DNA from: Myxococcota bacterium
GTDB lineage: Bacteria > Myxococcota_A > SURF-8
Length of the DNA stretch: 64,000 bases
Assembly (NCBI GenBank): GCA_963674735.2
Contig: CAXXQS010000003.1
Span: 32,001 to 96,000, forward strand
Direction of reading: 5' to 3'
Positions 2,094 through 36,237 of the stretch are shown one piece after another. The position numbers and the translations under genes are program-made. The notes beneath the pieces were generated by a model that was not told the DNA's origin, did not search any database, and saw only the letters and a list, made by a program, of their open reading frames with translations. Positions within the stretch are counted from its first letter, which is position 1, and each line of letters begins with the position of its first letter.

Positions 2094-3170
<1,077 letters not shown>

Positions 3171-4456: not shown

Positions 4457-4600
4457 AATCTCAACTCCCTTGGTGGCGGAGTATTGTCATACGAAACATC
4501 ATTTGGCAAGTGTTTTTTTGCCCGTTTTACCTCGATGAAAAGATCCGTATCATTATCCGTGAACTTGCCCCAACGATCTGTTTTCTGGTAGCTTGGAAAC

Positions 4601-5392: not shown

Positions 5393-5477
5393 TCGTTTGC
5401 CTCGAAATATGATAGTTTCCAAAGGGTTGAGAGTTCCTCGAAAAGCAAACGCAAATGCAGGGATAAAAGGACCAAGG

Positions 5478-6608: not shown

Positions 6609-6620
6609 AAGGACTGAAAT

Positions 6621-7172: not shown

Positions 7173-7212
7173 AAAATCGGGACCGCCCCTTTGGAGGACG
7201 GTCCCGGTTTTT
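7173..7212. terminator. bidirectional intrinsic terminator
   Basis: aaaaatCGGGACCG...CGGTCCCGgttttt between convergent genes. Confidence 0.8.
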
Positions 7213-7229
7213 CGTTCAGTAAATGGCGT

Positions 7230-12391: not shown

Positions 12392-12544
12392 ACTCTTCTT
12401 TCACCGAATTCCGACTATCCTGGCGGATATCATGTTTTAGTTGATTTTCCCATAAAACGGCGGTAAGACCGTTGCATCGATATAACCGATACGCGTTTTT
12501 ATAACACGCATCGCGCATTGCATTCAGACGCAAAGGAGGAAGTC

Positions 12545-13393: not shown

Positions 13394-13413
13394 ATTATAA
13401 AGCTCGTTGTCCT

Positions 13414-13441
13414 ACGGGGCGTTTCGGCGCCCCGTTTTTTA
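13414..13441 (+). terminator. intrinsic terminator of the 3-hydroxyacyl-CoA dehydrogenase gene
   Basis: ACGGGGCG-tttcgg-CGCCCCGT followed by a T tract. Confidence 0.85.
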
Positions 13442-13484
13442 TTGGCACAGATGACCGAATGGTCTTTCTCGTGGAAGTCTGAAT

Positions 13485-13509
13485 AAAAAAGCCGGGCTGA
13501 ACCCGGCTT
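13485..13509 (-). terminator. intrinsic terminator of htpG
   Basis: On the minus strand AAGCCGGG-ttcag-CCCGGCTT followed by a T tract. Confidence 0.8.
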
Positions 13510-13531
13510 GTCAGTGATGGTTGTTTTTGCG

Positions 13532-15415: not shown

Positions 15416-15483
15416 GGCCGGAATCTCCTTTAGCTGTGCTTTCTAAAAATATCGAATCAAATGCATTGTATCTATGCGCAGAA

Positions 15484-15511
15484 AACATAAGACCGAAGGC
15501 GGGAATGTCAA
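15484..15511 (-). promoter_or_regulatory. putative -35/-10 promoter for htpG
   Basis: Minus strand TTGACA-N16-TATGTT about 70 nt upstream of the start. Confidence 0.45.
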
Positions 15512-15678
15512 GGCGCGACAGGCAGGAAATTACGACCGGAAACGCCAGCTTGCCGTAGTCGGTTTCGTGGAGACAAGCGGAGCGGTTCCACAGTAGATTC
15601 GGTGGTATTCCAGTCGAAAAGACGTTCCGGCTTAAGGGCTTGGCAATTTCATCGTTTACGTATACTGCGCGACAGCAG

Positions 15679-19531: not shown

Positions 19532-22222
19532 ATGCAAAAGGGATGGCTGAATATCGTGTGGATGGGAAGCTTGCTGCTGGTGTTGCTTGTCGGCCTTGTG
19601 GGCTGTCTGGGAGATGAAATGAGCACAACACCCGTGGATGGCGACGACCCCGACGAGTCGGACGGCGATGATCCTGACGGTGACAGTCCCGATGGTGACA
19701 ACCCTGATGGCGACAGCCCCGACGGTGACAACCCTGACGGCGATACGCAAGCCTGTGACCATCTGTGCGATTGTCCGCAAGGATGGTTCTGCAATGATGC
19801 CGGCCAGTGTGAAGATGGAACCGGGATGCTCGGGACACCCTTCTGTTGCGTCAATCCCGAATGTCCGTATGACGCGCCTTGCGTCTACCCCGACGACAGT
19901 CCGAGCCGCTGTGCGCCGATTGATAGCTGTCCCTTCAGTGATACCGTGGTCGGTCGCTACTGCCCCGATTCCGAAAATGTCTGCGAAGCCGTGGCGGAAG
20001 TCGTGGTCGGCCAGGATGATTACTGTCTGTTCATGCTGACCTTCACTTTGGACGATGGATCCACCCTGCGTGTTTATATCGATGGCTACGATTACGATAC
20101 GATTTTCAATTTGGAAGAGGCGGGTTGCAGCGTCAGTTTCGACGCTGATGCGCCGTCTTTCGAGATCGCCTGCAACTGGTGCGGGACAACCACCTTCAGT
20201 AAGGATAATTGCCAAGCCGACCAATGTACGAGCGATTCGGATTGTCCCGATTGTGAGCTCTGCGAGACGCTCAACGGTGTCAAGCAATGCCTCGCGACTC
20301 CGGGAGCTCTGGGCTGTGTCAGCGACGATGACTGTGAAACGGGTTTCATCTGTGCTCCCTTCTCCAGCGATAAACCGCAATGCGGGGGGCAGTGTGTGCT
20401 CGATGACGATGGCAAATATATCTTGCACGAGTGGGGGGTCAATCGTCCGATGTCCGATGGCTCTTCCCTCATCAGTTCGGGACCACCCCGTTTTTGGGGC
20501 GCTGTTCCCGCCAAGCCGGTTTTATACGTGTATGCCGATAATCCCCTGCTGTTGGACGTCGGCGTCACCTTTGCCTCGGGTCACACAACCGACACCTGGC
20601 CACCGTTGCCCAACGGTGCGTCCATCGAATGGCAGGATGTTCTGGTTACGCAACCGGCTACCTGCAATCTTTCGCCGACGCCGATTCCACCTTACGATCA
20701 GATGGAGCCGGAGGACCGCGAGATCTACCAGTTGCCGGAATGGATCGTTCCCGATGCCGATTGCCTGAAAACCGATGGTGTGACGTCGAAATTATTATTT
20801 TATACCGGTGAGTTGAGCGACTACGAGCCACCGGTCAGCGGGTCGGTGGATGTCGATGCGAGTGCGGCTGAGGTGACCTTCAACTTGACCAACAGCGGTG
20901 ATGTCGATGTGGAGTCGGTTCTGTTATTATATCGCACGGCCACGGGTGAGTGCATCGATCCTTCGGGTTGCTCGGTCAATGCCGCCAGTCTGGCCTGGGG
21001 CAAATTGCGCGGTTTGGCAGCGGGGGCTTCCAGTAGTACGACGCTGGAACTTCACACCTTGGCTACCGATGGTAGCGAACCGTATCAGAACGTCACGATC
21101 CCCGAAGGCTGGAAAGCGATGGCGGATGATATGGAATCCATGCTGTCGTCCAAGGGCCTCTATGCGGACGAGATCGATGTCTTTATGGATGCCTGGGAAA
21201 CCATGTTTTTCGGCGTTCATTCGGGTGGCATGGAATGGTATTTGCCGGGTTACCAGAATGGGGCGTTCGTACTCTATTTATGGCCGGATTCCTTGACGGA
21301 AGAACAGTTGGCGCTAAGCCTCGATCCCCAGCCGCGCGAACTCAAACGGGCGATGGTCGAGTTCAATCGGCTGGCGCCACCGGACACGGAGGGCGCGTTG
21401 GCGGGTGAGGTGACTTTGGTGGAATACGATATCGATCCCGATTCGCCCACCTGGACCGGGCCAGCCGTGGGCGCGACTGTTACGGCGACGGAGAGCACCT
21501 ATCGCAACACCTATTCGGCTACCACCGGCGACGACGGAACCTATCGCATGAGTCTGCCGACGGGCGTCTATACCGTTACCGTGACGCGCAACGATTGGGA
21601 ACATGGCGATCGCATTGATCGTGTCGCGGTGCTGTCGGGACAAACCACTACCGTCAACCTCAATCTTTTCTCCGAGGCCATGGTTGATAAGCCCAACCTC
21701 TACCTTTATCCTACCCAAACAACTCAGGTGGGTGTGACGCTGGCTTTGTGCGGCGATTGCGTCGTGACGGAGTCGATCCCCGAATATGGAAGCGGTTGGG
21801 ATGTGACGGTGGAACCCTCCGGTTTGATTGACGATACTTATACCTACCTCTATTATGAAGCCGAAATCGCACGAAATTTTCCGATGCACGAAGGATGGAG
21901 CATTCCGGCGGCCGATGTCCCGCGTTTCTTTAACGAAACTTTGGCGGCCTACGGATTGACGGCGGCCGAGACGGCGGATTTCGTGGATTACTGGAGCACG
22001 CATCTGCCCGACGCACCCTTCTACGGCATTTACCCCTTGACGGAAGCGTCGGTCATTGAACCATTGGTCGGACTTCGTATCGATCCGCAGCCCGATTCGC
22101 TCTTCCGCCTATGGTTTGTCGTTTCCCCTGAAGTGACTCCACCTGCGTTGTCGCCTCCTGTTATCGACTCGCCTCCGCGTATCGGGTTTACAGCCGTCGA
22201 GTGGGGTGTGATTCTCGACTGA
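19532..22222 (+). CDS. large Cys-rich lipoprotein: DGD repeats, two KPx(L/I)Y/EWG uncharacterised domains, carboxypeptidase-regulatory-like Ig domain
   Basis: Lipobox LVGC; DGDxP repeats; KPVLYVY and KPNLYLYP; GATVT...TTGDDGTY...LPTGVYTVTV; AAGGAG RBS. Confidence 0.85.
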   Translation: MQKGWLNIVWMGSLLLVLLVGLVGCLGDEMSTTPVDGDDPDESDGDDPDGDSPDGDNPDGDSPDGDNPDGDTQACDHLCDCPQGWFCNDAGQCEDGTGMLGTPFCCVNPECPYDAPCVYPDDSPSRCAPIDSCPFSDTVVGRYCPDSENVCEAVAEVVVGQDDYCLFMLTFTLDDGSTLRVYIDGYDYDTIFNLEEAGCSVSFDADAPSFEIACNWCGTTTFSKDNCQADQCTSDSDCPDCELCETLNGVKQCLATPGALGCVSDDDCETGFICAPFSSDKPQCGGQCVLDDDGKYILHEWGVNRPMSDGSSLISSGPPRFWGAVPAKPVLYVYADNPLLLDVGVTFASGHTTDTWPPLPNGASIEWQDVLVTQPATCNLSPTPIPPYDQMEPEDREIYQLPEWIVPDADCLKTDGVTSKLLFYTGELSDYEPPVSGSVDVDASAAEVTFNLTNSGDVDVESVLLLYRTATGECIDPSGCSVNAASLAWGKLRGLAAGASSSTTLELHTLATDGSEPYQNVTIPEGWKAMADDMESMLSSKGLYADEIDVFMDAWETMFFGVHSGGMEWYLPGYQNGAFVLYLWPDSLTEEQLALSLDPQPRELKRAMVEFNRLAPPDTEGALAGEVTLVEYDIDPDSPTWTGPAVGATVTATESTYRNTYSATTGDDGTYRMSLPTGVYTVTVTRNDWEHGDRIDRVAVLSGQTTTVNLNLFSEAMVDKPNLYLYPTQTTQVGVTLALCGDCVVTESIPEYGSGWDVTVEPSGLIDDTYTYLYYEAEIARNFPMHEGWSIPAADVPRFFNETLAAYGLTAAETADFVDYWSTHLPDAPFYGIYPLTEASVIEPLVGLRIDPQPDSLFRLWFVVSPEVTPPALSPPVIDSPPRIGFTAVEWGVILD
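19637..19744 (+). repeat. coding tandem repeat DGD(D/S/N)P
   Basis: DGDDP-DES-DGDDP-DGDSP-DGDNP-DGDSP-DGDNP-DGD, mostly 15-nt units. Confidence 0.9.
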
Positions 22223-22251
22223 TTTCATAATCCGAACGGACTCATTTCTTT

Positions 22252-22289
22252 AAACGGACGCGCTTTCAGGTGCGTCCGTTTCGTTTATT
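22252..22289 (+). terminator. intrinsic terminator
   Basis: AAACGGACGC...GCGTCCGTTT followed by a T-rich tail. Confidence 0.75.
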
Positions 22290-22454
22290 GCGCCGTTGGG
22301 TCGATTGGCCAATCCCAGGATCGAAAGTTGAAAGAAAGTTTCAGAGCGTGCTATGGTTTGATCATCGATAAGCAGACCAAAGAGGGAATCAAAAAGTGAC
22401 AGATGCTCTCCATCAAGCGAATGTGGATCAGTCGGCAATATAGAAGGGGCAGGC

Positions 22455-23609
22455 ATGCGACCGATTGTGAAAATCTTGATCATCAACGGTATTTTTATGC
22501 TGGTCATTCTGGCTATTGCCGAATGGGCGGCGCGTAAGCTTTTCGATAATGCCTTTTTGCTTGAAGGCAACCAGTACGTTTTTTTCGAGTTCGACGAGCA
22601 ACTTGGTTGGCGGGGGAAAGCCAATACTAAGGGGATGTTTACTCGTGGCGAAGAATTTTCCACTCAGGTGAACACCAATCGTTTCGGAATGCGGGAACGG
22701 GAGGTCAGAAAAAAGAAAGAAGACGGTGTGATCCGGATTGCCGTACTCGGTGATTCCTTTACCTGGGGTTTCGGCGTCGAAACCGACGAAATCTATACCG
22801 CCGTTATGCAGCGTGAACTCGGTTCCCGTTTCGAAGTGCTGAACTTCGGGGTCAGTGGTTATGGACGTGGCCAACAGTGGCTACAATTGGAAAGCCAGGT
22901 GGCCGATTTTTCAGCGGATCTCGTGCTGATTATGGCTTATCCGGGCAACGATCTCTACGACAACCTGGCCGATGATCTCGCCTACGAAGTCTACCCGCGT
23001 CCGCGCTTTTCCCTCGACGACAAGGGACAGCTGGTTGTTTTGGGGCAGCCGGTGAAACCGCCATTGGGAGATTTTTCCGAGCGCTTGTTCATGCGACACA
23101 CGGGAGAATGGATGGGTGTCTATATGCGTTCTTATCTGTTTCGGGTGCTTTATCAAGTTTTTGCCTCGATGCAAAAATCCTGGGAGCAGAATCCGGCTGA
23201 TTACCTCAATCCCATTTATCAGCAGCACAATCGCCAAAAACTCAAAGAAGCGGCGAGGGTGGAAACCGCAATTCTTAAAAAAATCCGATCTTTTTGCCGC
23301 GCACAAGGGTGCAAGGTATTAGAGGCAATCGCCACAACTTCCGAACAGGTGCGACCGGCTTTGCAGGATGAATTGAGGAAACGTTTTCCCGATATCCCGG
23401 TTGACTGGGAGCAGCCTGCGCGGATTTTGACGGAAGCGGCTACGCGGGCAGGTGTCGATATCTACGATCTGGCTCCGGTTCTAAAAGCTGCCGAGGAGCG
23501 TGGGGAGCGCACGCATCGTGAAAAGGATTTCCACTGGACGCCGTTGGGCAATCGTCTTGTAGGGGAAACGCTGGCTCCGGTTGTGCGGAACATGATGGAA
23601 CGACGCTAG
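22455..23609 (+). CDS. SGNH/GDSL hydrolase family protein (AlgX/AlgJ-like, membrane anchored)
   Basis: LGDSFTWG, NFGVSGYG, GND, DFHWT..GN; N-terminal TM helix. Confidence 0.88.
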   Translation: MRPIVKILIINGIFMLVILAIAEWAARKLFDNAFLLEGNQYVFFEFDEQLGWRGKANTKGMFTRGEEFSTQVNTNRFGMREREVRKKKEDGVIRIAVLGDSFTWGFGVETDEIYTAVMQRELGSRFEVLNFGVSGYGRGQQWLQLESQVADFSADLVLIMAYPGNDLYDNLADDLAYEVYPRPRFSLDDKGQLVVLGQPVKPPLGDFSERLFMRHTGEWMGVYMRSYLFRVLYQVFASMQKSWEQNPADYLNPIYQQHNRQKLKEAARVETAILKKIRSFCRAQGCKVLEAIATTSEQVRPALQDELRKRFPDIPVDWEQPARILTEAATRAGVDIYDLAPVLKAAEERGERTHREKDFHWTPLGNRLVGETLAPVVRNMMERR

Positions 23610-23729
23610 CAGCGATCCTTCAATTCCAATAATATGTTGCGATTTTCATTTCTCCAGGTTTAGAATACCTCCTTGCGCAGATTTATTTTTTGTCCTTCAC
23701 CCAACGATACGCATGTTTAATACCAATCG

Positions 23730-25478
23730 ATGACGTCTAATTTGCCGAAACGCTACATCGCGATTCCCCTGGTGGTCCTGGCGGCCTACCTGTCGCCCTA
23801 CTTGATTTTGGGGCAGGATCATTACGTTCGTATTCACGACTATCTGGATAGCGTACTGGTTTTCTATAAAATACTCGCGCAAAGCGGCTTGATTTTCGCA
23901 CCCAACCAGGCCATCGTACCGAATTTGATGGGTGGGTTGGAACGTGCTTGGTGGCCCAGTGAGGTGAACGTATTTTTATGGTTTAACGTGTGGTTCGGAC
24001 CCTTCGGCGCGACAGCCGCCAACGAAGTCATCAGCCGGTTGGTGGCTTTTTTCGGCATGTTTTTATTCGTGCGGCGCTTCATCTTGTCCGATGAGCGTCC
24101 TCCGCTTGTGGCGGTGCTGGCCGGATTGTGTTTTGCCCTCGTCCCGCACTTTCCCGGGTCGCGCCTTTCCATCGTCGCCCAGCCGCTGGTTTTGTATGTC
24201 TTTCTCACGATCCGCGCCCGCCAAGATAAATGGCGTCACTGGCTGGTGCTGATTTTCGTTCCTTTCTATTCAAGTTTCGTTGTTTATTATTTTTTCTTTC
24301 TTGCATCCATGGGGACTCTCTGGTTGATCGACACCCTTCGCAAGCGACGTCCGGATTGGCGGTTTGTGGCCAGTATCGCGTTGATGACGGCTGTGTTTCT
24401 AGGCCTCGAATTCCGGTTGGTACAGACCATGCTGCTGGATGCCCAAGTGGTATCACATCGGGCGGAATTCACATATTACCAGGATCGCAACCTGGTCGAT
24501 GCGGCCTCTCGTTTCGTTGACAATCTGAAAAACGCCCACCATCATGGGTATAGCTTCCATTGGCCGGTGGTGGTGTTCACGGTTCTCCTGGCGGGCATCT
24601 GGGGTGGTATCCAGCGCCGTCGTCTACGAATCTATATGTTGCTGGTGGCGGGCATCGTTTTTTGCAGCCTCGCCAATGGGTTGTATTACTCGCCGGTAGT
24701 CGAGGCGTTATATCGGGTTGCCCCCATCACACGGCATTTCAACATTTCGCGCTTCAACCTGTTGCACCCGCTATTATGGTATCTGCTGTTTGCCGTGTCT
24801 TTGGCGATGATCGAAAAGTTGTCGAAAAACGGGCGCATACTTGTTTTGCTTCTGGCTGGATTGCAGGTGGCCTATTTATTTTATAACAGCGATTTTAGTC
24901 GTGAATATCGCGAACATGGAATCAGCTACCGACAATTCTATGCCGAGGAGTTGTTTGATGAGGTCGAGGCGGCCATTGGGGAACCGAAAGAAAGCTATCG
25001 GGTGGCCGTGATCGGTATGCACCCGGCGATCCCCCTGTATAACGGTTTTCATACCGTCGGCGGCTATTTTTACAATTATCCGCTAGCGTACAAACATGCC
25101 TTTTACCGGATTATTCGCCACGAATTGGCGAAAAGCCCGCATTGGAAGGGCTTGTTTGTTAACTGGGGCAGTATGGCTTACGTTTACTCGGCTGAGCTTA
25201 GCGAGGCCGACTATCTGATACCCCGCCTGCATCGGAATATCAACCACCTGGAACTTGATCCCAAAGCCTTGTGGAACCTTGGCGGACGTTATGTGATTTC
25301 GGCGTTGCCCATTGCCAATCCTGCCGATAACCGACTCACACCATTGCGTGCTTTTACCCACCCGGACAGCGCCTGGAATGTTTTTCTTTACCGGTTGGAA
25401 AAACCTGCTACGAAAGAAGAAGAGCAGAGTCCGGCAACGAATTCAATCGAGCCCGATCGCCTTCCACCTTCCGAGTAG
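23730..25478 (+). CDS. DUF6044/YkoS-like multi-pass membrane protein (putative GT-C glycosyltransferase)
   Basis: RIHDYLDS loop after TM1, many TM helices, IGMHPAI..YNGF...GY..YPL.YK..F..II..EL. Confidence 0.72.
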   Translation: MTSNLPKRYIAIPLVVLAAYLSPYLILGQDHYVRIHDYLDSVLVFYKILAQSGLIFAPNQAIVPNLMGGLERAWWPSEVNVFLWFNVWFGPFGATAANEVISRLVAFFGMFLFVRRFILSDERPPLVAVLAGLCFALVPHFPGSRLSIVAQPLVLYVFLTIRARQDKWRHWLVLIFVPFYSSFVVYYFFFLASMGTLWLIDTLRKRRPDWRFVASIALMTAVFLGLEFRLVQTMLLDAQVVSHRAEFTYYQDRNLVDAASRFVDNLKNAHHHGYSFHWPVVVFTVLLAGIWGGIQRRRLRIYMLLVAGIVFCSLANGLYYSPVVEALYRVAPITRHFNISRFNLLHPLLWYLLFAVSLAMIEKLSKNGRILVLLLAGLQVAYLFYNSDFSREYREHGISYRQFYAEELFDEVEAAIGEPKESYRVAVIGMHPAIPLYNGFHTVGGYFYNYPLAYKHAFYRIIRHELAKSPHWKGLFVNWGSMAYVYSAELSEADYLIPRLHRNINHLELDPKALWNLGGRYVISALPIANPADNRLTPLRAFTHPDSAWNVFLYRLEKPATKEEEQSPATNSIEPDRLPPSE

Positions 25479-25540
25479 CGCATCCCTAAACCGACTGTGG
25501 TATAATCCCGCCGAATTTGAACCCCGTGTAAGGAGAAGCG

Positions 25541-26677
25541 ATGTCCGGCCACATTCCTTTCAACCGGCCTTCGATGACGGGTCGTGAGATGGATTACATT
25601 CTGGATGCCATTCAGCGCGGCCATATTGCCGCCGGTGGACACTATACCTCCCGGTGCGAGCGCCTGCTTGAAGAGTCGTTGGGTGTGAAAAAAGCCCTGA
25701 TTACCCCGTCTTGTACGCATGCCCTTGAAATGGCGGCGCTGCTGCTCGATCTCAAGCCCGGCGACGAGTTTATTTGCCCGTCTTTTACCTTCGTTTCTAC
25801 CGCCAATGCTTTTGTCTTGCGCGGAGCCAAACCGCAGTTTGTGGATATTCGCCCTGATACACTTAATCTCGATGAGACGAAAATCGAAGCCGCCATTACC
25901 GAGCGGACCCGTGCCATCGTGCCGGTGCATTATGCCGGAGTAGGTTGCGAAATGGACCGCATTCGCGACATCGCCGACCGCCATGGGCTCCAGGTGGTGG
26001 AAGATAACGCTCAGGGACTCTACGGCACATATCGGGAGCGCCCTTTGGGCGGTTTCGGCGAGCTGGCGACAGTGAGTTTTCACGAAACCAAGAACTTCAC
26101 CTGCGGAGAGGGCGGGGTGCTGCTGGTGAACGATCCACGCTATATCGAACGTGCGGAAATTATTCGCGAAAAAGGTACCAACCGCAACCGCTTCCGTCGT
26201 GGTCAGGTGGACAAATATACCTGGGTGGATATTGGATCCAGTTATCTTCTTTCCGATCTGTGTGCGGCGTTCTTGCTGGCCCAGCTTGAAAATCGACAAA
26301 CCATACAAGAAACGCGTCGTGCCTTGTGGGAGCAATACGCGAAGGGTCTTGCCGACTGGGCGGGTGCCAACGAAGTCGGCCTGCCACAGTGCCCGGAGCA
26401 TTGCCAGCATACTTCTCATTTATTCTACCTGCTGATGCCGTCCATCGATAGTCGTCAGGCACTCATCGATCATTTGAAGGCGCATGAAATCATGGCTGTT
26501 TTTCATTATATCCCGCTGCACGATTCGGATATGGGGTTGCGTTACGGGTATCATCATGGCGATCTCCCGGTAACTGAGGATATCTCCGACCGACTTTTAA
26601 GGTTACCGCTTTATAACGGCATGACAGCGGAAGAACAGAATCGTGTGATGGCGGCGGTCAGGGGTTTTGTGGTTTGA
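25541..26677 (+). CDS. wecE: dTDP-4-amino-4,6-dideoxygalactose transaminase
   Basis: IPFNRP, TPSCTHALEMAA, PSFTFVSTANAF, SFHETKN, GEGG, EKGTNR..F.RGQVDKYTW, FHYIPLH. Confidence 0.95.
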   Translation: MSGHIPFNRPSMTGREMDYILDAIQRGHIAAGGHYTSRCERLLEESLGVKKALITPSCTHALEMAALLLDLKPGDEFICPSFTFVSTANAFVLRGAKPQFVDIRPDTLNLDETKIEAAITERTRAIVPVHYAGVGCEMDRIRDIADRHGLQVVEDNAQGLYGTYRERPLGGFGELATVSFHETKNFTCGEGGVLLVNDPRYIERAEIIREKGTNRNRFRRGQVDKYTWVDIGSSYLLSDLCAAFLLAQLENRQTIQETRRALWEQYAKGLADWAGANEVGLPQCPEHCQHTSHLFYLLMPSIDSRQALIDHLKAHEIMAVFHYIPLHDSDMGLRYGYHHGDLPVTEDISDRLLRLPLYNGMTAEEQNRVMAAVRGFVV

Positions 26678-27686
26678 GATGCGGACCCTGGGTCGCGTGC
26701 ACAATGCCACCGGTGAGATACACGACCAGACGCGCCAGAAAGATCAGGAAACACAGCATCAAGGCGTCGGAGAGCGGCACTCCGAGTTGAACCAACAAGA
26801 AGGTAAGCGTTCCTTCGCGGATTCCTACCCCACCGAGCGAAATAGGAAGAATGGTGATCAGGTTGGCCAGAGGCATGACTAACAGCATCTGCAGCAAGCC
26901 GATTTCCAGCCCTAAAGCCTGAGCTAGGCAAAAGGCTCCCAAGAAGTCACAGAATTGATAGCCGCTGCTGAGAATGAGAGCTTTTGGCCAAGTCCCGGAT
27001 GGAGCCTCGCTTAGCGTGTGTGCGAGCATGAAAGTTCGGTTCCATAAAGCGCTCCACCCATGATGGGTATTGTGTGGTCGAGGCAACCGGCTTGACAGAA
27101 AAAGCAGAGAAGCCAGTGCAAGCAACCCGACTCCCGCGGCAAGAGGAAGGAATATCCGCAAAGAGACTCCGGCCGCTTCAATGGCGGGAATGGGAGTGAA
27201 AAACGACATACAGGCGGCAAGAATCAACAAGCCCGTAAAACCCATAGTGCGTTCGGCAAGAACGGTCATTCCGGCTTTCACGGCCAATTTGGTGCGTGTT
27301 CGCGCGTAGAGCAAGATGCGCAGAGCGTCACTGCCGAACCAGCCCGGCAGGATGATGGCATAGTAACTGGCAGAAAGATATAGGATAAAAGGTTCCAGCC
27401 AGCCTATCGGCAGGCCGAAGGCTTTGAGTAACAAACGCCAGCGTTGCCCCGCGATGAAAAGACCGGTAATGGATAAAAGGGGGGCGATCCAAGCGATGCG
27501 CCAGTTGGTGCGTGCCAACACGTCGCGAGCACGTTCCCAGTCGGTGACATAGATCAAGTACGATACGATCCCGAGCGATACCGCTAGCTTGAGTGCGAAT
27601 AGCAAACGGCCGCGCCAGGGCTTGGGAGCCGGTGCGATGGATGAGGTGGAGGGTTCGATCATCGATGTCTGTTTTTGCGTACTCAA
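26658..27686 (-). CDS. lysylphosphatidylglycerol synthase TM region / UPF0104 flippase-like membrane protein
   Basis: LKLAVSLG, RWRLLL, LPGWFGSD..R, ER, LPISLGGVGIRE; start may be 27662. Confidence 0.85.
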   Translation of the reverse strand: MSTQKQTSMIEPSTSSIAPAPKPWRGRLLFALKLAVSLGIVSYLIYVTDWERARDVLARTNWRIAWIAPLLSITGLFIAGQRWRLLLKAFGLPIGWLEPFILYLSASYYAIILPGWFGSDALRILLYARTRTKLAVKAGMTVLAERTMGFTGLLILAACMSFFTPIPAIEAAGVSLRIFLPLAAGVGLLALASLLFLSSRLPRPHNTHHGWSALWNRTFMLAHTLSEAPSGTWPKALILSSGYQFCDFLGAFCLAQALGLEIGLLQMLLVMPLANLITILPISLGGVGIREGTLTFLLVQLGVPLSDALMLCFLIFLARLVVYLTGGIVHATQGPHLKPQNP

Positions 27687-27689
27687 ATC

Positions 27690-28913
27690 TTAATCCTGGC
27701 TCTTGTCGCTTTCGGCAGGAGTTACTCGAATCGTCACCTCATCGACGAAGTCGAGAAGCTGACGTCGTGCCGAGTCGTAGCTGTCGGTTTCGGTCGTGAT
27801 CATCATCAGGCGCGCTCCGTCGTGCTCGACTCCTTCCAATTGCACGCCATTGGGACGCAAACGGCGTGAGCTGGTAATGCAATGGCGCTCGAAAGCACCT
27901 TCCGGGATCTCCATATCCGAAAGTGTTCCCCGCTGGTCGGTTGTCAGGAAATAACTGCCATAATAGCTGTTATTACAAGCTTTTGGCGGGTCAGGAAGCT
28001 CTCCCAGAGCAAGGCGAATCGTTGCACCGTACACGTCGTAGTTCCATTTCGAGGGAACGAGTCGGGCCATAATGGCGCCGCCTGCCAGCCGGGGGCCGAT
28101 GTCGATGATACGAGGTTCCCCTTCTTTGTCGATGGCCATGTCGATATGGGTGGGACCCCATTGAATACCCAAACGCCGAATGGCTTCGGCATTGGCTTTG
28201 AGGACGCGCTGCTGGATTTCCGTCGGCAGAGCTGAAGGAAAAAGGACTCCGAGAGTTACGTTTCGGGCAGCCGGGTGGATGAGTTTATCGGCGATCGTCA
28301 TGACATGAACGTGACCGTCGAATACCATCGATTCAACACCCAATATAGGACCATCGATGAATTCCTCGATGACCACTTCCGTCGTGCGGCTATGTCGCCG
28401 GGCACATGAAAACGCTTCGCGAATAAGTGAATGGTCATCGGTGTTTACACGGGATATTCCTTTGCCTCCGCCTCCGTCGGCAGGTTTGAAAGCCAGCGGA
28501 TAAGTTAACGGCGATTGTTTTGCGAGCGCGTCTTCGAAGCTTGTGGCGATCACTCCTTTGGGAGTCAGATCGCCTAATAGACGCCGAAAACGGTCTTTGT
28601 AGACTGCGTTGAGGGAGGCGGCATAGGAAATGAAATGGCGACTGAGAGACAGCTTCTCGGTGACATAGGCGCAGGTGCAAATTGCGGTGCTGGTGCCGCA
28701 GGTGACGAGTCCCCGGATGTCCTCGCGTTTTGCCAGATCAAGTACCGTGTCGTGATCGGCCGTATCGATGGGCAGGAAGAGATCGGCCGCTTCGGCTGCT
28801 GCCGGTTTGGCTTCTCCGGCACCGATTACAATCGCCCGATAGCCCAACTCCTGGGCTTTTTCAACCAGCGGAATCTGATTGTAGGTCGCTCCGAGAATGC
28901 AGATCGATTTCAT
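27690..28913 (-). CDS. ATP-grasp domain ligase
   Basis: ILGA...Q, NAVYKDRFR, KPADGGGGKGI, IEEFIDG, GPTHID, IIDIGPRLAGG. Confidence 0.9.
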   Translation of the reverse strand: MKSICILGATYNQIPLVEKAQELGYRAIVIGAGEAKPAAAEAADLFLPIDTADHDTVLDLAKREDIRGLVTCGTSTAICTCAYVTEKLSLSRHFISYAASLNAVYKDRFRRLLGDLTPKGVIATSFEDALAKQSPLTYPLAFKPADGGGGKGISRVNTDDHSLIREAFSCARRHSRTTEVVIEEFIDGPILGVESMVFDGHVHVMTIADKLIHPAARNVTLGVLFPSALPTEIQQRVLKANAEAIRRLGIQWGPTHIDMAIDKEGEPRIIDIGPRLAGGAIMARLVPSKWNYDVYGATIRLALGELPDPPKACNNSYYGSYFLTTDQRGTLSDMEIPEGAFERHCITSSRRLRPNGVQLEGVEHDGARLMMITTETDSYDSARRQLLDFVDEVTIRVTPAESDKSQD

Positions 28914-30034
28914 GGGTGATTACCGTTCAAGCCGGATTCGTTAACAATTTCCATGATTTTATCGGCAGAACAGTCTGCTAAACCGAGGTGTTCAAGCGTG
29001 CGGCCGTCGGCTCGGTAGTCGCGGTTGTGGATACGCCCGGCCAGACGTATCAGCATATCCGCCATCGGAGTCGGGACTCCGAGTTTGCGGCCCAATGAAT
29101 CAATCGGGACAAGTCCTGTCGGCACATCATCGGTGATGTAGCGGTGATCCAGCGTACGTGGGGCCTCGATCGTCCGGTAGTAATCGGTATCCTGCAAGGC
29201 GGTGAAGAGGTCGTTGCCCCGGCTTCCGTAGTTTTCATTCAGCCATTGGCAGGTGGAAATCATCGACAATCCGAGTTTCCGACCCACGGCCATGCGCTCT
29301 CCATCGAGTTCTTCAAGGAGTTGCGCGACGGAGGGTGTGATTCCGTCGTAGTAATACATGAATTGAGTTCGATCGGTCTCGATCCAGCCCATGTTGAGGA
29401 GAGTCGGCAACGGGTGAAGAATGGCTCCCACGCTATTCAAACCGGTTTCCAGGATGTTGGAGGCTTTCTGAAATACCGGTAACAACTCATTCAACGTTGT
29501 CAACACCTCGTCGCTACGAGTGGCCGGGAATGCGGCGAGACGAACAGCCGGTTTGACGCAGATAATGTCTACGATTTCGGCTTCAATGTTGCGGCAGGTG
29601 TGTACGAGCGTATTGGTTTCCGCCAAGGTGATATCGGCGCATAAGCCCGCCGTTAAAAGGGCTCTGTAGAATTCGATCGAGCCGAACAACCTGCCGGGAT
29701 TGAGGAGAAGGATCTGTCCGTCGACGAGATGCGGGGCGCATAACTCGGCAAGCTCCGCATGGGCGTTCGCGGTTACCGTAAGCATGACCAATTCCGCACT
29801 TTCCAGTGCTTTGCGAATATCGCTGGTAACGGTTGCGATACGACCCGTACCCGATACGACACCGGTAAGTTTCAGTTCAGGGTTTTGGTGCAAGCCCGCG
29901 AGACGGGCTTCGCTGCGGTTGTAGAGGGTTATCCGGTGTCCGAGAAGTGCGAGATGACCGGCGAGAGCTTTTCCCCCGTTGCCCCCTCCGATAACGGTAA
30001 TTCTGCGGGTAGAAGTGGAAGTCATGTTGCACAT
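28910..30034 (-). CDS. NAD/NADP octopine/nopaline (opine) dehydrogenase
   Basis: VIGGGNGG.A.A, LNPGR..G, AETNTL, N.GAILHP, FMYYYDG.T, LDGER, HRYITDDVPTGLVP, GVPTP, GRTL. Confidence 0.92.
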   Translation of the reverse strand: MCNMTSTSTRRITVIGGGNGGKALAGHLALLGHRITLYNRSEARLAGLHQNPELKLTGVVSGTGRIATVTSDIRKALESAELVMLTVTANAHAELAELCAPHLVDGQILLLNPGRLFGSIEFYRALLTAGLCADITLAETNTLVHTCRNIEAEIVDIICVKPAVRLAAFPATRSDEVLTTLNELLPVFQKASNILETGLNSVGAILHPLPTLLNMGWIETDRTQFMYYYDGITPSVAQLLEELDGERMAVGRKLGLSMISTCQWLNENYGSRGNDLFTALQDTDYYRTIEAPRTLDHRYITDDVPTGLVPIDSLGRKLGVPTPMADMLIRLAGRIHNRDYRADGRTLEHLGLADCSADKIMEIVNESGLNGNHP

Positions 30035-31926
30035 GTATCCTTGTCAAATGAACCGTCGTGTTCGCGCATCCTGGCCAGACGATCCAGCCGAGCGGCGACA
30101 TCGAGGGGTTGTCCACGTTCATTCACCAATTCCGTACCGCCGTTGATCAGTCGGCTGTTCCAGTCGACGGCATGTGGGAATGTTTCCCGGCAATTCCATA
30201 GATTGGGAACCGGCAGGTAGCCTTCTTCGAAGATGCGATAAAGGCCCGCTGCTGAATAAGGATCGGGAATTCGGCGCTCGATGTCGTGTAGAATTTCGTG
30301 TGCCTCGGAAAGCAGCTGCTCGCGGCGTTCGGTTACGGTTTCCCCGCTGATGAGATCCCTCAACCCAAGCCGATTCCGCAGAGTCGGATAATGTGTCAAG
30401 GCGGCTTTTGCGATTCGTACGCTTTCGTTGATCACCTTCGGCGTGGCGAGCTGGTCGCCTTCAGAATAACTGACGACATGGAGAATCGGTGGACTGCTCG
30501 GGTTGTCGGGTTCCACGTCCGTCATCAGCGCGGTTGTCGCCGCTAATTGGATTTTTGCCTTGTCGAGATCGGGAGAAAAATAATCCAAACCGGCACGTGG
30601 CTGATAGATGATATGAAAAGACGAATCCGCCAGGCTACCGACTAGAGATAAAAGGGCACGCGCCTTGGCCAGATCGTTGAGCCCCGACGAAGCTTTCGGT
30701 AGATTCAACATGTTTTGCAACACCAGATAACCGACTCCGGCTTTCTTGGCTGTCCTTGCCGCCAAGTAGGAACTTACAAGATAGGTGACATCGTCTGCAC
30801 CGCGAAAGGCGAAATGGTGCGGGACGTTGGGTTCGAAAGGACGTCCACAGCGAGCGATATAGCGGATCGCGGCAAGATGTTCGTCCAGGTTTTGTTTGAC
30901 GGAATTGGGACCCCGGCCGTCGATTTCCGAAAACCACCAGAGTGAGAGTGCGTGCCAGGCGTTATGCAGGCTACGTTCTAAAATTTTGGCCATTTCGACA
31001 ACGTGTTTCGACCCGGAATAGGCGCGCACCAGCATGGGTTGGGCGGCTTTCCAGATCGTTGCAAACTCACGTTCGTCATGGATTGGGGTGCCGCCCCCGT
31101 TGATACGTCCCGCCCAACTCTCGCCGAAGGCCGATTGAGTCAGTTGGGACGAGCCGATGGACGCGATGTCGAGCCAACCTGCTTTTGCAAGTTGTCGGAC
31201 CCAGTCGATAAGGCGTTTCACGGCCTCCAGACGGTTCGATTGATAGGGGCCGACGTGGGCACGGAACAAGGGCAGTCGTCCTGCTTTAGCTGCATGGGTG
31301 AGGCGCAGGATCAAATGGTCGTTGGGGGAGCCCATTTCCGGATAATTCAAGGGTGAAGGCGGTTGTTGGGCTAAGTGAGCCTCGCTGCCTAACAGATCGT
31401 TCCCGAAGTCCATGCGTTCGTTGTCGTATTCAGCGGTGGTTTGAATCGCCTGAGGAATTTTTTCTTCAGGAATTCCGAGCAGACGTAGGGTCTGAAGCGG
31501 AGTTTCATCTCCCATGAAGACCGGAAAACGCCTTTGGAATACCCGTTCGATCCGTCTGCATGCGTCGGGTAACCCAGCGAAATAGAGAGATTTGATTGTG
31601 CCACCCGTTCCGGTGTCCAGCAGCTTTTCGGCGGTGAGTCGCACGACGAAGTGTTCGAAAATCGTTGTTGCTTGATCCGGGTCGAGTCTGTAGCTGATAC
31701 CAAGTCGTGTGATGCCGTGTCGGCGAACCCAATCACACACTTGTGCAAAAGCGAGAGGGGATTCCATGTTTTCGGCTGCGGTAGCAATGGTATTGTCTGC
31801 ACTGTAAACCCGATAGCCGCAATCCTCCAGCAGATCGGCCACGGCACTTAGGCCCAATGTATGCGCGTCCGTGTACGGCTTGATCAGTCCGAAAACGTCC
31901 GTCTGGCCGCAATGGATGTCGGGCAT
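30022..31926 (-). CDS. cobalamin-binding protein: N-terminal B12 Rossmann domain fused to a glutamate-mutase-like TIM barrel
   Basis: DAHTLG (DxHxxG), GISYRL (SxL-like), YFAG; then RAHVGP, NGGGTPI, AKKAGV, NDLAKARAL. Confidence 0.78.
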   Translation of the reverse strand: MPDIHCGQTDVFGLIKPYTDAHTLGLSAVADLLEDCGYRVYSADNTIATAAENMESPLAFAQVCDWVRRHGITRLGISYRLDPDQATTIFEHFVVRLTAEKLLDTGTGGTIKSLYFAGLPDACRRIERVFQRRFPVFMGDETPLQTLRLLGIPEEKIPQAIQTTAEYDNERMDFGNDLLGSEAHLAQQPPSPLNYPEMGSPNDHLILRLTHAAKAGRLPLFRAHVGPYQSNRLEAVKRLIDWVRQLAKAGWLDIASIGSSQLTQSAFGESWAGRINGGGTPIHDEREFATIWKAAQPMLVRAYSGSKHVVEMAKILERSLHNAWHALSLWWFSEIDGRGPNSVKQNLDEHLAAIRYIARCGRPFEPNVPHHFAFRGADDVTYLVSSYLAARTAKKAGVGYLVLQNMLNLPKASSGLNDLAKARALLSLVGSLADSSFHIIYQPRAGLDYFSPDLDKAKIQLAATTALMTDVEPDNPSSPPILHVVSYSEGDQLATPKVINESVRIAKAALTHYPTLRNRLGLRDLISGETVTERREQLLSEAHEILHDIERRIPDPYSAAGLYRIFEEGYLPVPNLWNCRETFPHAVDWNSRLINGGTELVNERGQPLDVAARLDRLARMREHDGSFDKDTCAT

Positions 31927-31927
31927 C

Positions 31928-32890
31928 TCAATCGAGCTCTTTGGTGCGAATCGTTCCGGTGGGCATGCGGCGGACTTCGAAAAGAATTCGGATGAGATAT
32001 TCCCCGATGATTCCCATGGCGAAGAGCGAAACGCCGAAGAAGAAAAGCAGCAATAACACTAAGGTTGTCCAGCCTTGTATCGCGATACCGCCGAAGAGAT
32101 ATTCGCAAAAATAGTAGATACCGAGAATGGTGCTGAGAACGAAACAACCCAATCCGAGAAAGCTGACCAGCTGCAGGGGTAAAGCCGAGTTTCCAAGAAT
32201 GTTGTCAAGGCCGTTGGAAACGAGTCGGCGCAAGCTGTAACCGGACTGATCGTACTTGCGGGGATGATGTTCTACCTGAACGTTTTTCACCTGGGTGGTA
32301 ATCTGCATAAGCAACAATCCGATGCGTGGACTGAAGTTGCGGTATTCCAACAGGTGACGGGCGATTGTGCGTCGCATTACGCGAAAACTGGTGAGTTTGA
32401 GATTCGGATCGGTTTGTAGCATGTAGCAGGTCAAACGTTCGATCGTTTTGGTCGCCAGATTACGTATTGGGTGGTGTTGTTTGGTCTCGTAGGAACCCAC
32501 CACTGCATCCATGGATTCGTCTTCCCGAATGGCTGTAACGAGCTTGGGGATCTCTTCGGGCGGATGCTGCAGGTCATCGTCCATGGTGATGATCAATTCC
32601 CCGCGAGTGTGAGCGATTCCGGAGAGGATGGTGTTGTGCTGGCCGAAATTTCGGGTGTGTTGCAAGAGTTTGATCTGTGGATAAGTCTTCCGAATTTCCT
32701 TCATCAGTGTCCACGAGTTGTCTCGACTACCATCATCGACGAGCAAAATCTCGTATTCCTCACCGATGGCATCGAATACCCGAGTCAGTCTTTCACACAA
32801 TTCTCCAAGGCTTTTCGATGAGTTGTAAATAGGTACCACAACACTAAAGGCCAACGTGGCGGGATTGTGGATGCTGAGTCCTTCAGGCAT
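31928..32890 (-). CDS. undecaprenyl-phosphate glycosyltransferase, GT2 (ArnC/GtrB/YkoT-like)
   Basis: SVVVPIYN, VDDGSRD, RNFGQHN, TMDDDLQHPPEEIP, SFR, two C-terminal TM helices, GIIGEY. Confidence 0.93.
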   Translation of the reverse strand: MPEGLSIHNPATLAFSVVVPIYNSSKSLGELCERLTRVFDAIGEEYEILLVDDGSRDNSWTLMKEIRKTYPQIKLLQHTRNFGQHNTILSGIAHTRGELIITMDDDLQHPPEEIPKLVTAIREDESMDAVVGSYETKQHHPIRNLATKTIERLTCYMLQTDPNLKLTSFRVMRRTIARHLLEYRNFSPRIGLLLMQITTQVKNVQVEHHPRKYDQSGYSLRRLVSNGLDNILGNSALPLQLVSFLGLGCFVLSTILGIYYFCEYLFGGIAIQGWTTLVLLLLFFFGVSLFAMGIIGEYLIRILFEVRRMPTGTIRTKELD

Positions 32891-33215
32891 GGGGACGTCC
32901 CTATCACGGCGCTTGGAAAACAGCCAGTCATTTACGGATCAATGCTTTGCCGGATAAAACGCAGACGCGTTTGGTCGGCGAAGCTTCACGGATGCGTAAC
33001 TTAGATTGAAATATACGCCTGAAGCTATTGGAAATCAAGGAGAATTCTGTGTTGCAACACTGAAGGAATCTGACGAAGGAAAGTTTGAAAAACGAGTTTT
33101 TTCCTACGCCCTTCTTTCCGATAACCAGTCCGAGATCCGGATTCCGGTCCAGTTACCGAACGGCCACCGGCTGGTTGATTGTCTCTAAGTTGTAGAAATA
33201 ACACCAAAAATTGTT

Positions 33216-33231
33216 TGGTACAAAAATTGCT
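33216..33231 (+). promoter_or_regulatory. sigma54 (-24/-12) promoter
   Basis: TGGTAC-AAAAA-TTGCT matches TGGCAC-N5-TTGC(A/T) with one mismatch, 48 nt before ATG 33280. Confidence 0.7.
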
Positions 33232-33279
33232 GTTTAAGCTGGGTGAAGTTGAAATCCGCCTTTAGACGGAGGAACTCTC

Positions 33280-34020
33280 ATGCCGGTACCGGAATTCGTT
33301 TCGCTTGCGCGGTTGGCGGGCCGTTATTTACGGCAATTGTTGGATGAGCTGGAGGAGCCCATGCAAGAGAATGGATCCAATGACCACTTCCGGCGATCGC
33401 GTCGATTGCCGTCAGGTTTTAAAAAACTAGATGATGCGCTTGGGTTAGGCGGCGTTCCCGAAGGGGCGACTGTCGAGCTTTGGAGCGCGTTTTCCCGTGA
33501 GTTGTTCTGGTTTTCGTCTCACTGGGTGGATGTGTTGCATTTACGTGGGCGCAATATTGTGTTGGTGGATCCTTTCTCTGAGTTTGATCCGACTCAGTTC
33601 CGTTGTAACCGTTCGGATTCCGGGCAAATTATGGTGGTCAACGTTGTGGAACGGGATGCATTGACTCGTCTTGTTAGTCGCTTGATGGAAGAAAAAAATA
33701 CTGATTTGGTAGTGCTGCCGCCAGGGATTATGGCTCAGCAGTATCTCAGCTATGGAGCGATCACCAGTGACGCAACCAAGCCGATCGAAGCCGCTTTCGA
33801 GCAGGCCATTCAACACTTGGCTTGGCTCGGACGACGTACCGGCGTCAGCTTGCTGCTGATGCGTCACGTATCGGAGGATCGCTATCCTCCTTCGCTGGCT
33901 TCGGCACAGGTGCATTTACGGATTTTGGAGCGCTCCCCCTATAGTGGACGCCGTTTGCGAATCGAGCATAATGTGTTGGCTCCCGAAACGATGGGCAAAC
34001 TCATCACGTTGCCTGACTGA
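33280..34020 (+). CDS. RecA-fold protein lacking Walker motifs (ImuA-like)
   Basis: LPSGFKKLDDALGLGGVPEGATVEL resembles the RecA N-terminus; LVDP..EFDP; P-loop replaced by WSAFSREL; GGAGG RBS. Confidence 0.7.
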   Translation: MPVPEFVSLARLAGRYLRQLLDELEEPMQENGSNDHFRRSRRLPSGFKKLDDALGLGGVPEGATVELWSAFSRELFWFSSHWVDVLHLRGRNIVLVDPFSEFDPTQFRCNRSDSGQIMVVNVVERDALTRLVSRLMEEKNTDLVVLPPGIMAQQYLSYGAITSDATKPIEAAFEQAIQHLAWLGRRTGVSLLLMRHVSEDRYPPSLASAQVHLRILERSPYSGRRLRIEHNVLAPETMGKLITLPD

Positions 34021-34090
34021 TTGTTTGGCGATCTCGTCCTTCCCCATTGAAATGCTGTGGATATAAGGATAAGTTTCGAAAATTCCACAT

Positions 34091-34130
34091 AAAAAACAGA
34101 CCGCCCCGTGAGGAACGGGGCGGCTGTTTG
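34091..34130. terminator. intrinsic terminator of acs (probably bidirectional)
   Basis: aaaaaACAG-aCCGCCCCG-tgaggaa-CGGGGCGG-CTGTtt. Confidence 0.85.
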
Positions 34131-34147
34131 GGGATGCTGAACCGAGC

Positions 34148-36115
<1,968 letters not shown>

Positions 36116-36237
36116 GCTTACCTCCTGGTCATGCGGCATTGGGGTTGGTATTGCCTATCGTAAATAAAAAACCTAGCCTGTTATTCTCGATTCATTTTTC
36201 AACGTGTCGCGATGATGCAAAGCGTGATGTGATCCGG

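Follow-up and report, generated by a model that had tools for sequence, protein, structure and literature searches.

P0001 is a 634-residue protein encoded in a 64,000-nucleotide stretch of a Myxococcota bacterium genome (contig CAXXQS010000003.1, positions 32,001 to 96,000; the whole stretch is hereafter called the window), and the most fitting description for it is that of an adenosylcobalamin (AdoCbl)-dependent mutase of fused GlmS-GlmE-like type from an uncharacterized family. On balance, the enzyme is probably an AdoCbl radical mutase whose product, a branched acidic amino acid or an opine, would be attached to a lipid-linked amino sugar; we infer both the cofactor and the substrate. The most useful new facts are a near-obligate partnership with an opine dehydrogenase (ODH) and the Arn-like lipid-linked sugar context in which the window's copy is found. 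The original prediction, made from the DNA letters, had proposed a single-chain relative of glutamate mutase with an N-terminal B12 domain, a remodelled active site and a substrate other than glutamate, possibly an opine. The gene and its parts are located as follows.

30022..31926, minus strand: mutase gene P0001, single-chain B12-binding/GlmE-like protein of 634 aa with an ATG start (open reading frame (ORF) and translation)
31462..31905, minus strand: predicted cobalamin-binding Rossmann-like domain, residues 8-155 (VIA-align fold search and profile matches)
31852..31869, minus strand: DAHTLG (DxHxxG), residues 20-25, with His22 the predicted lower cobalt ligand (conservation and alignment to solved B12 domains)
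31330..31461, minus strand: helical linker, residues 156-199 (secondary structure of the AlphaFold2 (AF2) model)
30091..31329, minus strand: GlmE-like TIM barrel and C-terminal extension, residues 200-612 (1cb7_B superposition and hhalign)
30910..30921, minus strand: DGRG, residues 336-339, with invariant Asp336 and family-specific Arg338 (hhalign columns and conservation)

Architecture of the mutase

Residues 8-155 are predicted, from profiles and from a model, to adopt a cobalamin-binding fold, a likeness that goes beyond a chance motif. A family profile built from a broad alignment (A2, 42 of 270 collected proteins) matched the PDB sequences 4jgi_A (E 3.3e-5), 2yxb_A, a 'coenzyme B12-dependent mutase' (E 1.3e-4), and 4r3u_C (E 3.1e-3). 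In the alignment to these solved domains the DxHxxG motifs coincide; S78-Y-R-L81 falls at the SxL region and F116-A-G118 (FAGLP) at the GG motif, the last two as variants (SxxL and AG). When a model of residues 1-196 by themselves, built from 30 sequences (predicted local distance difference test score (pLDDT) 89.0), was searched against 48,161 PDB representatives without a Foldseek pre-filter, ranks 1-13 were all cobalamin-binding domains (Z 14.1 to 10.9). The top match was 4r3u_D, the small subunit of 2-hydroxyisobutyryl-CoA mutase (Z 14.1, root-mean-square deviation (rmsd) 2.1, 123/129 residues), and further matches were IcmF (Z 12.9), MetH (12.3), corrinoid proteins, methylmalonyl-CoA mutase (MCM, 12.0) and ornithine 4,5-aminomutase (OAM, 11.7); CheY-like receiver domains came next, the best at rank 14 with Z 10.8.

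Residue conservation was counted in 160 full-length homologs (540-700 aa, out of the 270 collected, the others being dropped for length), comprising 120 close and 40 distant sequences. His22 is kept in 120/120 close and 35/40 distant homologs (155/160), and Asp20 in 119 of the close ones; among the distant homologs position 20 is Asp in 19/40 and Cys in 17/40, and position 117 is Gly in 17/40. No lysine is invariant or 90%-conserved in the N-terminal domain across 30 sequences. The helical cap B12-binding_2 (PF02607) gave no match in P0001, where 19 residues precede DxHxxG. CxxxCxxC is likewise absent from the mutase, whose seven cysteines are never so spaced, and a cobalamin-dependent radical SAM enzyme was ruled out for lack of this motif, in line with the original prediction. 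Two cysteines of the B12 domain, Cys36 (31819-31821) and Cys123 (31558-31560), are at least 90% conserved and invariant, respectively, in the 30 sequences.

For the remainder of the chain, the closest solved fold is that of GlmE. Model residues 200-612 superpose on residues 42-440 of 1cb7_B, which ranks first in VIA-align (Z 27.3, rmsd 3.2, 373 aligned) and was also retrieved by Foldseek (E 1.4e-11), followed by lysine 5,6-aminomutase 8t0v_A (Z 26.1, 333 aligned), OAM 3kow_A (Z 23.6), the MCM barrel (Z ~18) and generic barrels (ThiC, GcpE, dihydropteroate synthase; Z ~16). The GlmE match extends through the C-terminal extension to residue 612, that of lysine 5,6-aminomutase to 582. Comparison with mutases, which the original prediction had proposed as a check while naming a methyltransferase match as its refutation, places the modelled barrel with mutase rather than methyltransferase barrels (GlmE Z 27.3, pterin-binding/dihydropteroate synthase type ~16).

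The reference for individual residues was a set of seven GlmE sequences from Bacillota (alignment A3; the GlmE gene was present in 76/301 sampled genomes), the first of which aligns 1:1 to the 1cb7_B/6h9e_B numbering. Profile-profile alignment of A2 with A3 by hhalign gave a probability of 90.4% (E 1.4e-6, 362 columns), with P0001 residues 205-611 on GlmE 48-441 at ~14% identity between mutase and GlmE. In GlmE, Arg66/Arg100/Arg149, Glu171 and Tyr177/Tyr181 are the substrate-binding residues, and all six are invariant in the seven sequences. The hhalign columns pair GlmE and P0001 as follows.

GlmE Arg66: His224, with Arg222 two residues upstream on the same strand
GlmE Asp89: Asp253, kept
GlmE Arg100: gap, within SQLT-QS
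GlmE Asn123-Gly124-x-Pro126: Gly278-Gly279-x-Pro281, kept
GlmE Arg149: Tyr303, with Arg301 two residues upstream on the same strand
GlmE Glu171: Asp336, conservative change
GlmE Gly173: Arg338, new arginine
GlmE loop 175-183 (Tyr177, Tyr181): deleted
GlmE Lys326: Val485
GlmE Glu330: Glu489, kept

The columns of GlmE Gly244-Val245 and Asp261 are also shared or conservatively kept. Within the family, Arg222, Asp253, Tyr303, Asp336, Arg338, Glu365, Asp379, Lys421, Arg444, His483 and Glu489 are found in 120/120 close and 35-40 of the 40 distant homologs (Asp336 in 39 and Arg338 in 37 of the latter). The predicted substrate pocket is remodelled and rich in basic residues, and would as such suit a polycarboxylate, though not free glutamate, as substrate. 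The register given by hhalign might change in a structure-based alignment, since Arg222 and Arg301 sit two residues upstream of the Arg66 and Arg149 columns. Because the substrate-binding features of GlmE that were tested were not found in P0001, the mutase is not a glutamate mutase proper.

The structural claims of the original prediction stood up well. Its motifs lie where it placed them (DAHTLG at 20-25, GISYRL at 76, YFAG at 115, INGGGTP at 275, PMLVRAYSG at 297, AARTAKKAGV at 389 and NDLAKARAL at 417), the base-off/His-on type of B12 domain agrees with the 4jgi_A and 2yxb_A profile matches and with the fold ranking, each of its four GlmE motif pairings shares its columns in the hhalign alignment, and the changed substrate-binding positions bear out a remodelled active site.

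P0001 belongs to a large, unstudied family. In a 90%-clustered protein collection, 7999 candidates were scored and 2852 of them were homologs at E≤1e-3, those at the top being 50-55% identical, ~620 aa in length and labelled 'cobalamin-binding protein' or 'hypothetical'; the window's mutase is a singleton cluster there, and an exhaustive search of 50% representatives yielded 439 homologs at E≤1e-3. The family was confirmed in 476 stretches from one-genome-per-species contigs of many phyla, and in 59 of 301 sampled Bacillota genomes (E≤1e-20). Cultured carriers among the loci include Polaribacter marinus MSW13, Azoarcus indigens DSM 12121 and [Clostridium] ultunense DSM 10521. The alignment of close relatives (A1, 30 of 120 listed close homologs) has a mean column identity of 60% and long invariant polar runs. 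The mutase itself received no Pfam or NCBIfam assignment at E 0.01, and at E 10 its sole Pfam match was B12-binding, over residues 14-52 (16.1 bits, cut-off 32.1). B12-binding matched 23/30 close homologs weakly (best E 2.2e-5), and Met_asp_mut_E (PF06368), which did not match P0001 even at E 10, matched one of the 30 at E 0.0089. Searches of PDB sequences with the single sequence and the A1 profile returned chance matches only, and the A2 profile, which reached B12 domains, did not reach GlmE by sequence. The full-length AF2 model has a pLDDT of 88.7 and a predicted template modelling score of 0.89. On a tree of 77 rows (L063 and L081 were dropped for in-frame stops, L032 and L035 as truncated) the window's mutase sits on a long branch (0.83).

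A fusion scan of 32 distant representatives found a GlmL/MutL reactivase domain fused to the mutase in three (P0185, P0206, P0210), a glutathione-synthetase-type ATP-grasp in one (P0157) and the C-terminal part of an opine dehydrogenase in one (P0239, each half of which was confirmed by BLASTP with the ODH and mutase of the window). The Pfam cut-off for Met_asp_mut_E was passed by the distant members P0157 and P0164. The fold and the distant MutL-fused relatives point to adenosyl- over methylcobalamin as the probable cofactor of P0001. Four of the five fused forms have CxHxxG in place of DxHxxG, none has DxHxxG, and the N-terminal part of P0210 lacks such a motif; the fused forms speak for the superfamily and not directly for the window's subfamily. 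B12 domains seldom have Cys at the Asp position of the ligand triad. The distant CxHxxG subfamily (P0157, P0185, P0206, P0190, P0239) keeps SYRL and DGRG, and HVVSYSE is also kept in two of these five.

The host is predicted to use AdoCbl: its genome (5.26 Mb, three contigs, 94% complete), in which the mutase is single copy, encodes a PduO-type adenosyltransferase and two MCM-type mutases and has two cobalamin riboswitches. Canonical GlmE gave no match at E≤1 in this genome, and none was found in five carrier genomes, where one weak match was a distant paralog beside an ODH. MutL/GlmL (PF13941) and MeaB (PF03308) were absent from the 40 window ORFs scanned against Pfam, as the original prediction had said of GlmL and MeaB. 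One divergent GlmL/MutL-family gene lies on another contig (G000:C1:1451736-1453166; locus L091 8359-10239, minus strand); its 626-aa product matches PF13941 at E 1.8e-121, under the NCBIfam GlmL cut-offs, and the neighbouring proteins (377 and 217 aa) matched no Pfam or NCBIfam family and contained no B12 domain. This gene may serve the mutase in trans or may belong to something else, and its link to the mutase is a guess.

Partnership with opine dehydrogenase

The partnership between the mutase and ODH is near-obligate, which is a new finding. In the window the two genes overlap by 13 nt, and the ODH is closely related to the N-(1-D-carboxyethyl)-L-norvaline dehydrogenase of Arthrobacter (1bg6).

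28910..30034, minus strand: opine dehydrogenase, 374 aa (Pfam Octopine_DH E 6.5e-49; PDB 1bg6 E 8.7e-74)

Related loci were compared in the best 80 of the 476 confirmed. An ODH homolog is present at 48 of them, within 300 bp of the mutase in 43, and adjoins the mutase in 36 of the 59 loci having at least 1.5 kb on either side. All five genomes examined whose mutase locus is without ODH have an ODH elsewhere, against 0/14 control genomes with an ODH. In nine ODH-less loci (27 proteins scanned) no conserved mutase neighbour was found. Of the 301 sampled Bacillota genomes, 92 have an ODH and 59 the mutase family: in all 59 carriers a mutase-family gene lies no more than 5 kb from an ODH, and 33 of the 242 non-carriers have an ODH. 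The Fisher p value of 4e-39 for this co-occurrence overstates independence, as it is uncorrected for genome relatedness. Prediction of a complex between mutase residues 8-625 and ODH, run without controls, scored 0.00 against a mark of 0.32 and is no evidence either way.

One genome (G001, locus L043) has a close mutase homolog at C3:37228-39060 without an adjoining ODH, and a second, distant paralog of 549 aa at C1:81689-83877 (35% identical over the barrel) directly after an ODH.

The partnership narrows the search for the substrate to opines and their precursors, and the substrate question is therefore directly testable at the bench. An opine itself as the putative substrate fits the near-obligate pairing.

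Sugar genes and a proposed pathway

The genes around the mutase and ODH suggest a sugar-modifying cassette resembling known lipid-linked systems.

31928..32890, minus strand: GT2 glycosyltransferase of ArnC/GtrB (polyprenyl-phosphate) type, 320 aa, first operon gene (Pfam Glycos_transf_2 E 5.4e-31)
27690..28913, minus strand: ATP-grasp ligase of L-amino-acid-ligase type, 407 aa (Pfam ATP-grasp families; PDB 3vot, L-amino acid ligase, E 5e-20)
26658..27686, minus strand: MprF-type flippase-like membrane protein, 342 aa (Pfam LPG_synthase_TM E 3.5e-37; TIGR00374; six hydrophobic segments)
25541..26677, plus strand: dTDP-4-amino-4,6-dideoxyhexose transaminase, WecE type (NF008687 583.8 bits, cut-off 375; DegT_DnrJ_EryC1 E 4.9e-100)
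23730..25478, plus strand: DUF6044 polytopic membrane protein, candidate periplasmic transferase (Pfam DUF6044 E 3.8e-169; eight hydrophobic segments in residues 1-360)
22455..23609, plus strand: SGNH/AlgX-like esterase or acyltransferase (Pfam Lipase_GDSL_2, ALGX; one N-terminal hydrophobic segment, a membrane anchor)

The minus-strand genes run in the order GT2, mutase, ODH, ATP-grasp, flippase, each overlapping the next or separated from it by no more than 3 nt (the ATP-grasp gene overlaps the ODH gene by 4 nt), and the plus-strand WecE, DUF6044 and SGNH/AlgX-like genes converge on this operon. The best NCBIfam matches of the GT2, which has two C-terminal hydrophobic segments, are ArnC (E 1.1e-51) and PgfS (E 8.5e-47), both under their equivalog cut-offs. 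A look-up of DUF6044 in the ESM Atlas returned, besides the DUF6044 family, only clusters of membrane proteins with loose similarity; the protein may be the missing periplasmic transferase. Flanking the cluster are diderm housekeeping genes (heptosyltransferase, OmpA, MurJ, MreBC). No Rfam family was found at gathering scores in the whole window, and hence no riboswitch ahead of the mutase operon. Promoter and terminator scans of 22000-34200 gave counts not clearly over those of shuffles, and a promoter-like site lies upstream of GT2 at 33038-33010 (minus strand). The sequencing entries listed were three of DNA, all from a single study, with none of RNA among them.

Parts of this cassette recur elsewhere. 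Across the 80 related loci an ATP-grasp homolog is present at 20 and a WecE homolog at 17, frequently in the order WecE, ATP-grasp, ODH, mutase. All six genes (GT2, mutase, ODH, ATP-grasp, flippase, WecE) occur together, in other orders, in a Bacteroidales metagenome-assembled genome (MAG; locus L048) and a Gracilibacteria MAG (L055). Locus L029 has mutase, methyltransferase, ATP-grasp (48% identical to the window's) and flippase genes, and in L038 the mutase module lies inside a polysaccharide cluster.

The L048 cassette (11938-15554) comprises ODH, mutase, ATP-grasp, flippase and GT2, after which come two hexapeptide acyltransferases, two HpcH/HpaI genes (citrate-lyase-beta/methylmalyl-CoA-lyase type) and a mesaconyl-CoA-hydratase-like gene, neighbours that hint at branched C5-dicarboxylate chemistry of the methylaspartate/mesaconate type. 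In L055, from a Candidatus Gracilibacteria MAG (154-8132), the whole cassette comprises GNAT, GT2, ODH, mutase, ATP-grasp, flippase and WecE, the last sharing 50% identity with its counterpart in the window; one would not expect a small-genome candidate-phyla-radiation bacterium such as this to have a B12 enzyme.

The folds, motifs, residue conservation, gene coupling and co-occurrence described above are observed, and a pathway can be proposed in which the order of steps, the final acceptor, the substrate and the cofactor form are all putative. A B12-binding GlmS-like part fused ahead of a GlmE-like barrel would make P0001 an AdoCbl-dependent radical isomerase, with His22 taking the place of the dimethylbenzimidazole base beneath the cobalt. 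Substrate binding would set off homolysis of the Co-C bond, the 5'-deoxyadenosyl radical would abstract a hydrogen, and a carbon-skeleton 1,2-shift of the glutamate to 3-methylaspartate kind would follow. The substrate would not be free glutamate; more likely it is a polycarboxylate, such as an acidic amino acid or its N-(1-carboxyalkyl) opine, that the translationally coupled ODH produces or receives. The ATP-grasp ligase may then link the rearranged acid through an amide to the 4-amino group of the dTDP-4-amino-4,6-dideoxyhexose made by WecE, after which the ArnC-like GT2 would load the acylated sugar on polyprenyl phosphate and the MprF-like protein would flip the lipid-linked sugar across the membrane, the presumed end point being an envelope glycoconjugate of the diderm host.

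A bolder form of this proposal makes P0001 an 'opine mutase', obligately paired with ODH. N-(carboxyalkyl) amino acids would then be rearranged by an AdoCbl radical enzyme for the first time, and P0001 would also be the source, in this bacterium, of the first B12-dependent building block known for an envelope glycoconjugate, by way of a polyprenyl-phosphate sugar and an MprF-like flippase. This we put forward tentatively, as something that may well prove wrong. To our knowledge only about a dozen AdoCbl isomerase reactions are known, and the family could add another. The window's copy suggests that an acid made with B12 reaches the cell envelope; if so, the supply of vitamin B12 would be tied to surface chemistry.

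Known systems and alternative explanations

Glutamate mutase (GlmS/MutS and GlmE/MutE, EC 5.4.99.1; 1cb7, 1ccw, 1i9c, 6h9e; PF02310 and PF06368) has in common with P0001 a DxHxxG Rossmann domain and a superposable barrel and extension. The window's enzyme differs in being one chain rather than two subunits, in having no GlmL in its cluster, in its partner (opine dehydrogenase instead of methylaspartase) and in the new invariant Arg338, Lys421 and Arg444 of its family. The acyl-CoA mutases (4r3u, IcmF 4xc6, MCM 2xij, 1req) provide the best structural matches to residues 8-152 (Z 14.1, 12.9 and 12.0), and the B12 domain of IcmF is also N-terminal; their barrel is more distant (Z ~18), and P0001 lacks a CoA-binding architecture, a MeaB-type G-protein domain and a MeaB neighbour. 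The 2-methyleneglutarate mutase of Eubacterium barkeri, which uses AdoCbl to rearrange the carbon skeleton of a C5/C6 dicarboxylate, is like P0001 in being a single chain and unlike it in having its B12 domain at the C-terminus.

Arn and Gtr systems decorate envelope glycans via a polyprenyl-phosphate sugar. Like Arn (ArnB/ArnC/ArnE-F/ArnT) and the Gtr three-component systems, the window clusters a sugar 4-aminotransferase, an ArnC-like GT2 and a small flippase-type protein. Its flippase is of MprF type, not ArnE/F or GtrA, no GT-C transferase was recognized, and the N-acyl group would come from ODH, mutase and ATP-grasp ligase rather than from a formyltransferase. We know of no B12 step for alanopine-acylated 4-amino-4,6-dideoxyglucose. 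Alanopine, an opine, is described in a review (PMC10609480), in its account of the Providencia alcalifaciens O35 O-antigen, as amide-linked to this sugar; an opine amide on a 4-amino sugar is the product expected of an ODH, ligase and WecE cassette, and the O-antigen thus offers a chemical precedent for the combination.

The family had a precursor in the literature. Zhang, Rodionov, Gelfand and Gladyshev (BMC Genomics 2009, PMC2667541), in their description of a predicted novel B12-dependent family, reported a distant N-terminal B12-binding domain, a gene position always beside an octopine/nopaline dehydrogenase (pfam02317) and D-Ala-D-Ala-ligase-type or asparagine-synthase genes nearby, and asked for experiments. 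The window's mutase fits that family of 11 sequences by description only, in having the B12 domain, the adjacent dehydrogenase and the ATP-grasp gene; a GlmE-like barrel and a link to sugar genes are not recognized in that description. The claim of a new isomerase with a substrate other than glutamate stands as regards the mutase barrel and altered pocket, and its novelty is diminished by the prediction of a like-described family in 2009. No later characterization of the family's reaction was found in literature searches, the broader of which were judged by title and the start of the abstract.

Several observations weigh against the favored reading. Lysine 5,6-aminomutase follows GlmE closely in the fold ranking (Z 26.1 versus 27.3), and the reaction may differ in kind and not just in substrate, because none of GlmE Arg66, Arg100 and Arg149 is kept in its hhalign column. 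The GG motif of the B12 domain reads AG, and P0001 falls under the Pfam thresholds, with B12-binding at 16.1 versus 32.1 bits and without a Met_asp_mut_E match. Genes for a reactivase, a G-protein chaperone and an adenosyltransferase are all missing from the cluster, MutL was found at none of the 80 related loci, and the MutL-, ATP-grasp- and ODH-fused forms belong to the distant CxHxxG subfamily. The link to GT2 and flippase is rare, strong tblastn matches to both being found in 2/80 loci (L048 and L055), with a flippase match without GT2 in L029 and, in L038, no more than a weak GT2 match; this context does not form one clade on the mutase tree, and a DUF6044 homolog is absent from all 80 related loci.

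One alternative is that a free small molecule, for example a compatible solute or fermentation intermediate, is the product of the mutase-ODH(-ligase) module, whose position between GT2 and flippase in the window would then be uninformative on the fate of the product. ODH alone of the window's neighbours is present at 28/80 loci and none of them at 31/80, and the neighbours of ODH-less loci vary, one being a Na:alanine symporter. Against this, the five minus-strand genes lie end to end, overlapping or no more than 3 nt apart, the six-gene set recurs in two unrelated lineages in differing orders and a WecE-like gene is found at 17/80 loci; the lack of an Rfam riboswitch in the window also speaks against it, and we regard it as unlikely, though worth keeping in mind.

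Less likely again is an aminomutase of the lysine 5,6- or ornithine 4,5- kind that shifts an amino group, possibly with pyridoxal phosphate (PLP). The barrels of lysine 5,6-aminomutase (1xrs, 8t0v, 9q1a) and OAM (3kow, 3kp1) have a like fold (Z 23-26), nearly level with GlmE, and OAM, whose B12 domain scores Z 11.7, likewise joins barrel and Rossmann domain in one chain, in the reverse of the order in P0001, where the B12 domain comes first. Known aminomutases hold PLP through a lysine in the B12/Rossmann domain, and no invariant or nearly invariant lysine is present there in 30 homologs of P0001; the conserved Lys421 of the barrel leaves room for PLP elsewhere. No sequence-level match to either enzyme was found, the sequence signal favors GlmE (Met_asp_mut_E in distant members and hhalign at 90%), and GlmE covers more of the C-terminal extension. 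We consider it highly improbable that P0001 is a corrinoid protein without radical chemistry, that is, a methylcobalamin methyltransferase, a B12 sensor or a carrier, even though the best PDB sequence match of the family profile is the corrinoid protein 4jgi_A and MetH and corrinoid-protein domains reach Z 11-12. Methyltransferase corrinoid modules need a helical cap ahead of the Rossmann domain, for which a DxHxxG motif starting at residue 20 leaves no space; moreover, the top fold match of the domain is an AdoCbl mutase subunit, pterin-binding/dihydropteroate synthase-type barrels score Z ~16 versus 27 for GlmE, and relatives fused to a MutL reactivase exist.

Elsewhere in the window, two long ORFs, 34154-36163 (plus strand), antisense to an acetyl-CoA synthetase gene, and 25388-26419 (minus strand), antisense to WecE, matched nothing in Pfam or NCBIfam and in all likelihood are not genes. 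Upstream of the cluster, at 19532-22222 (plus strand), an 896-aa protein is encoded in which only a carboxypeptidase-regulatory-like domain was recognized.

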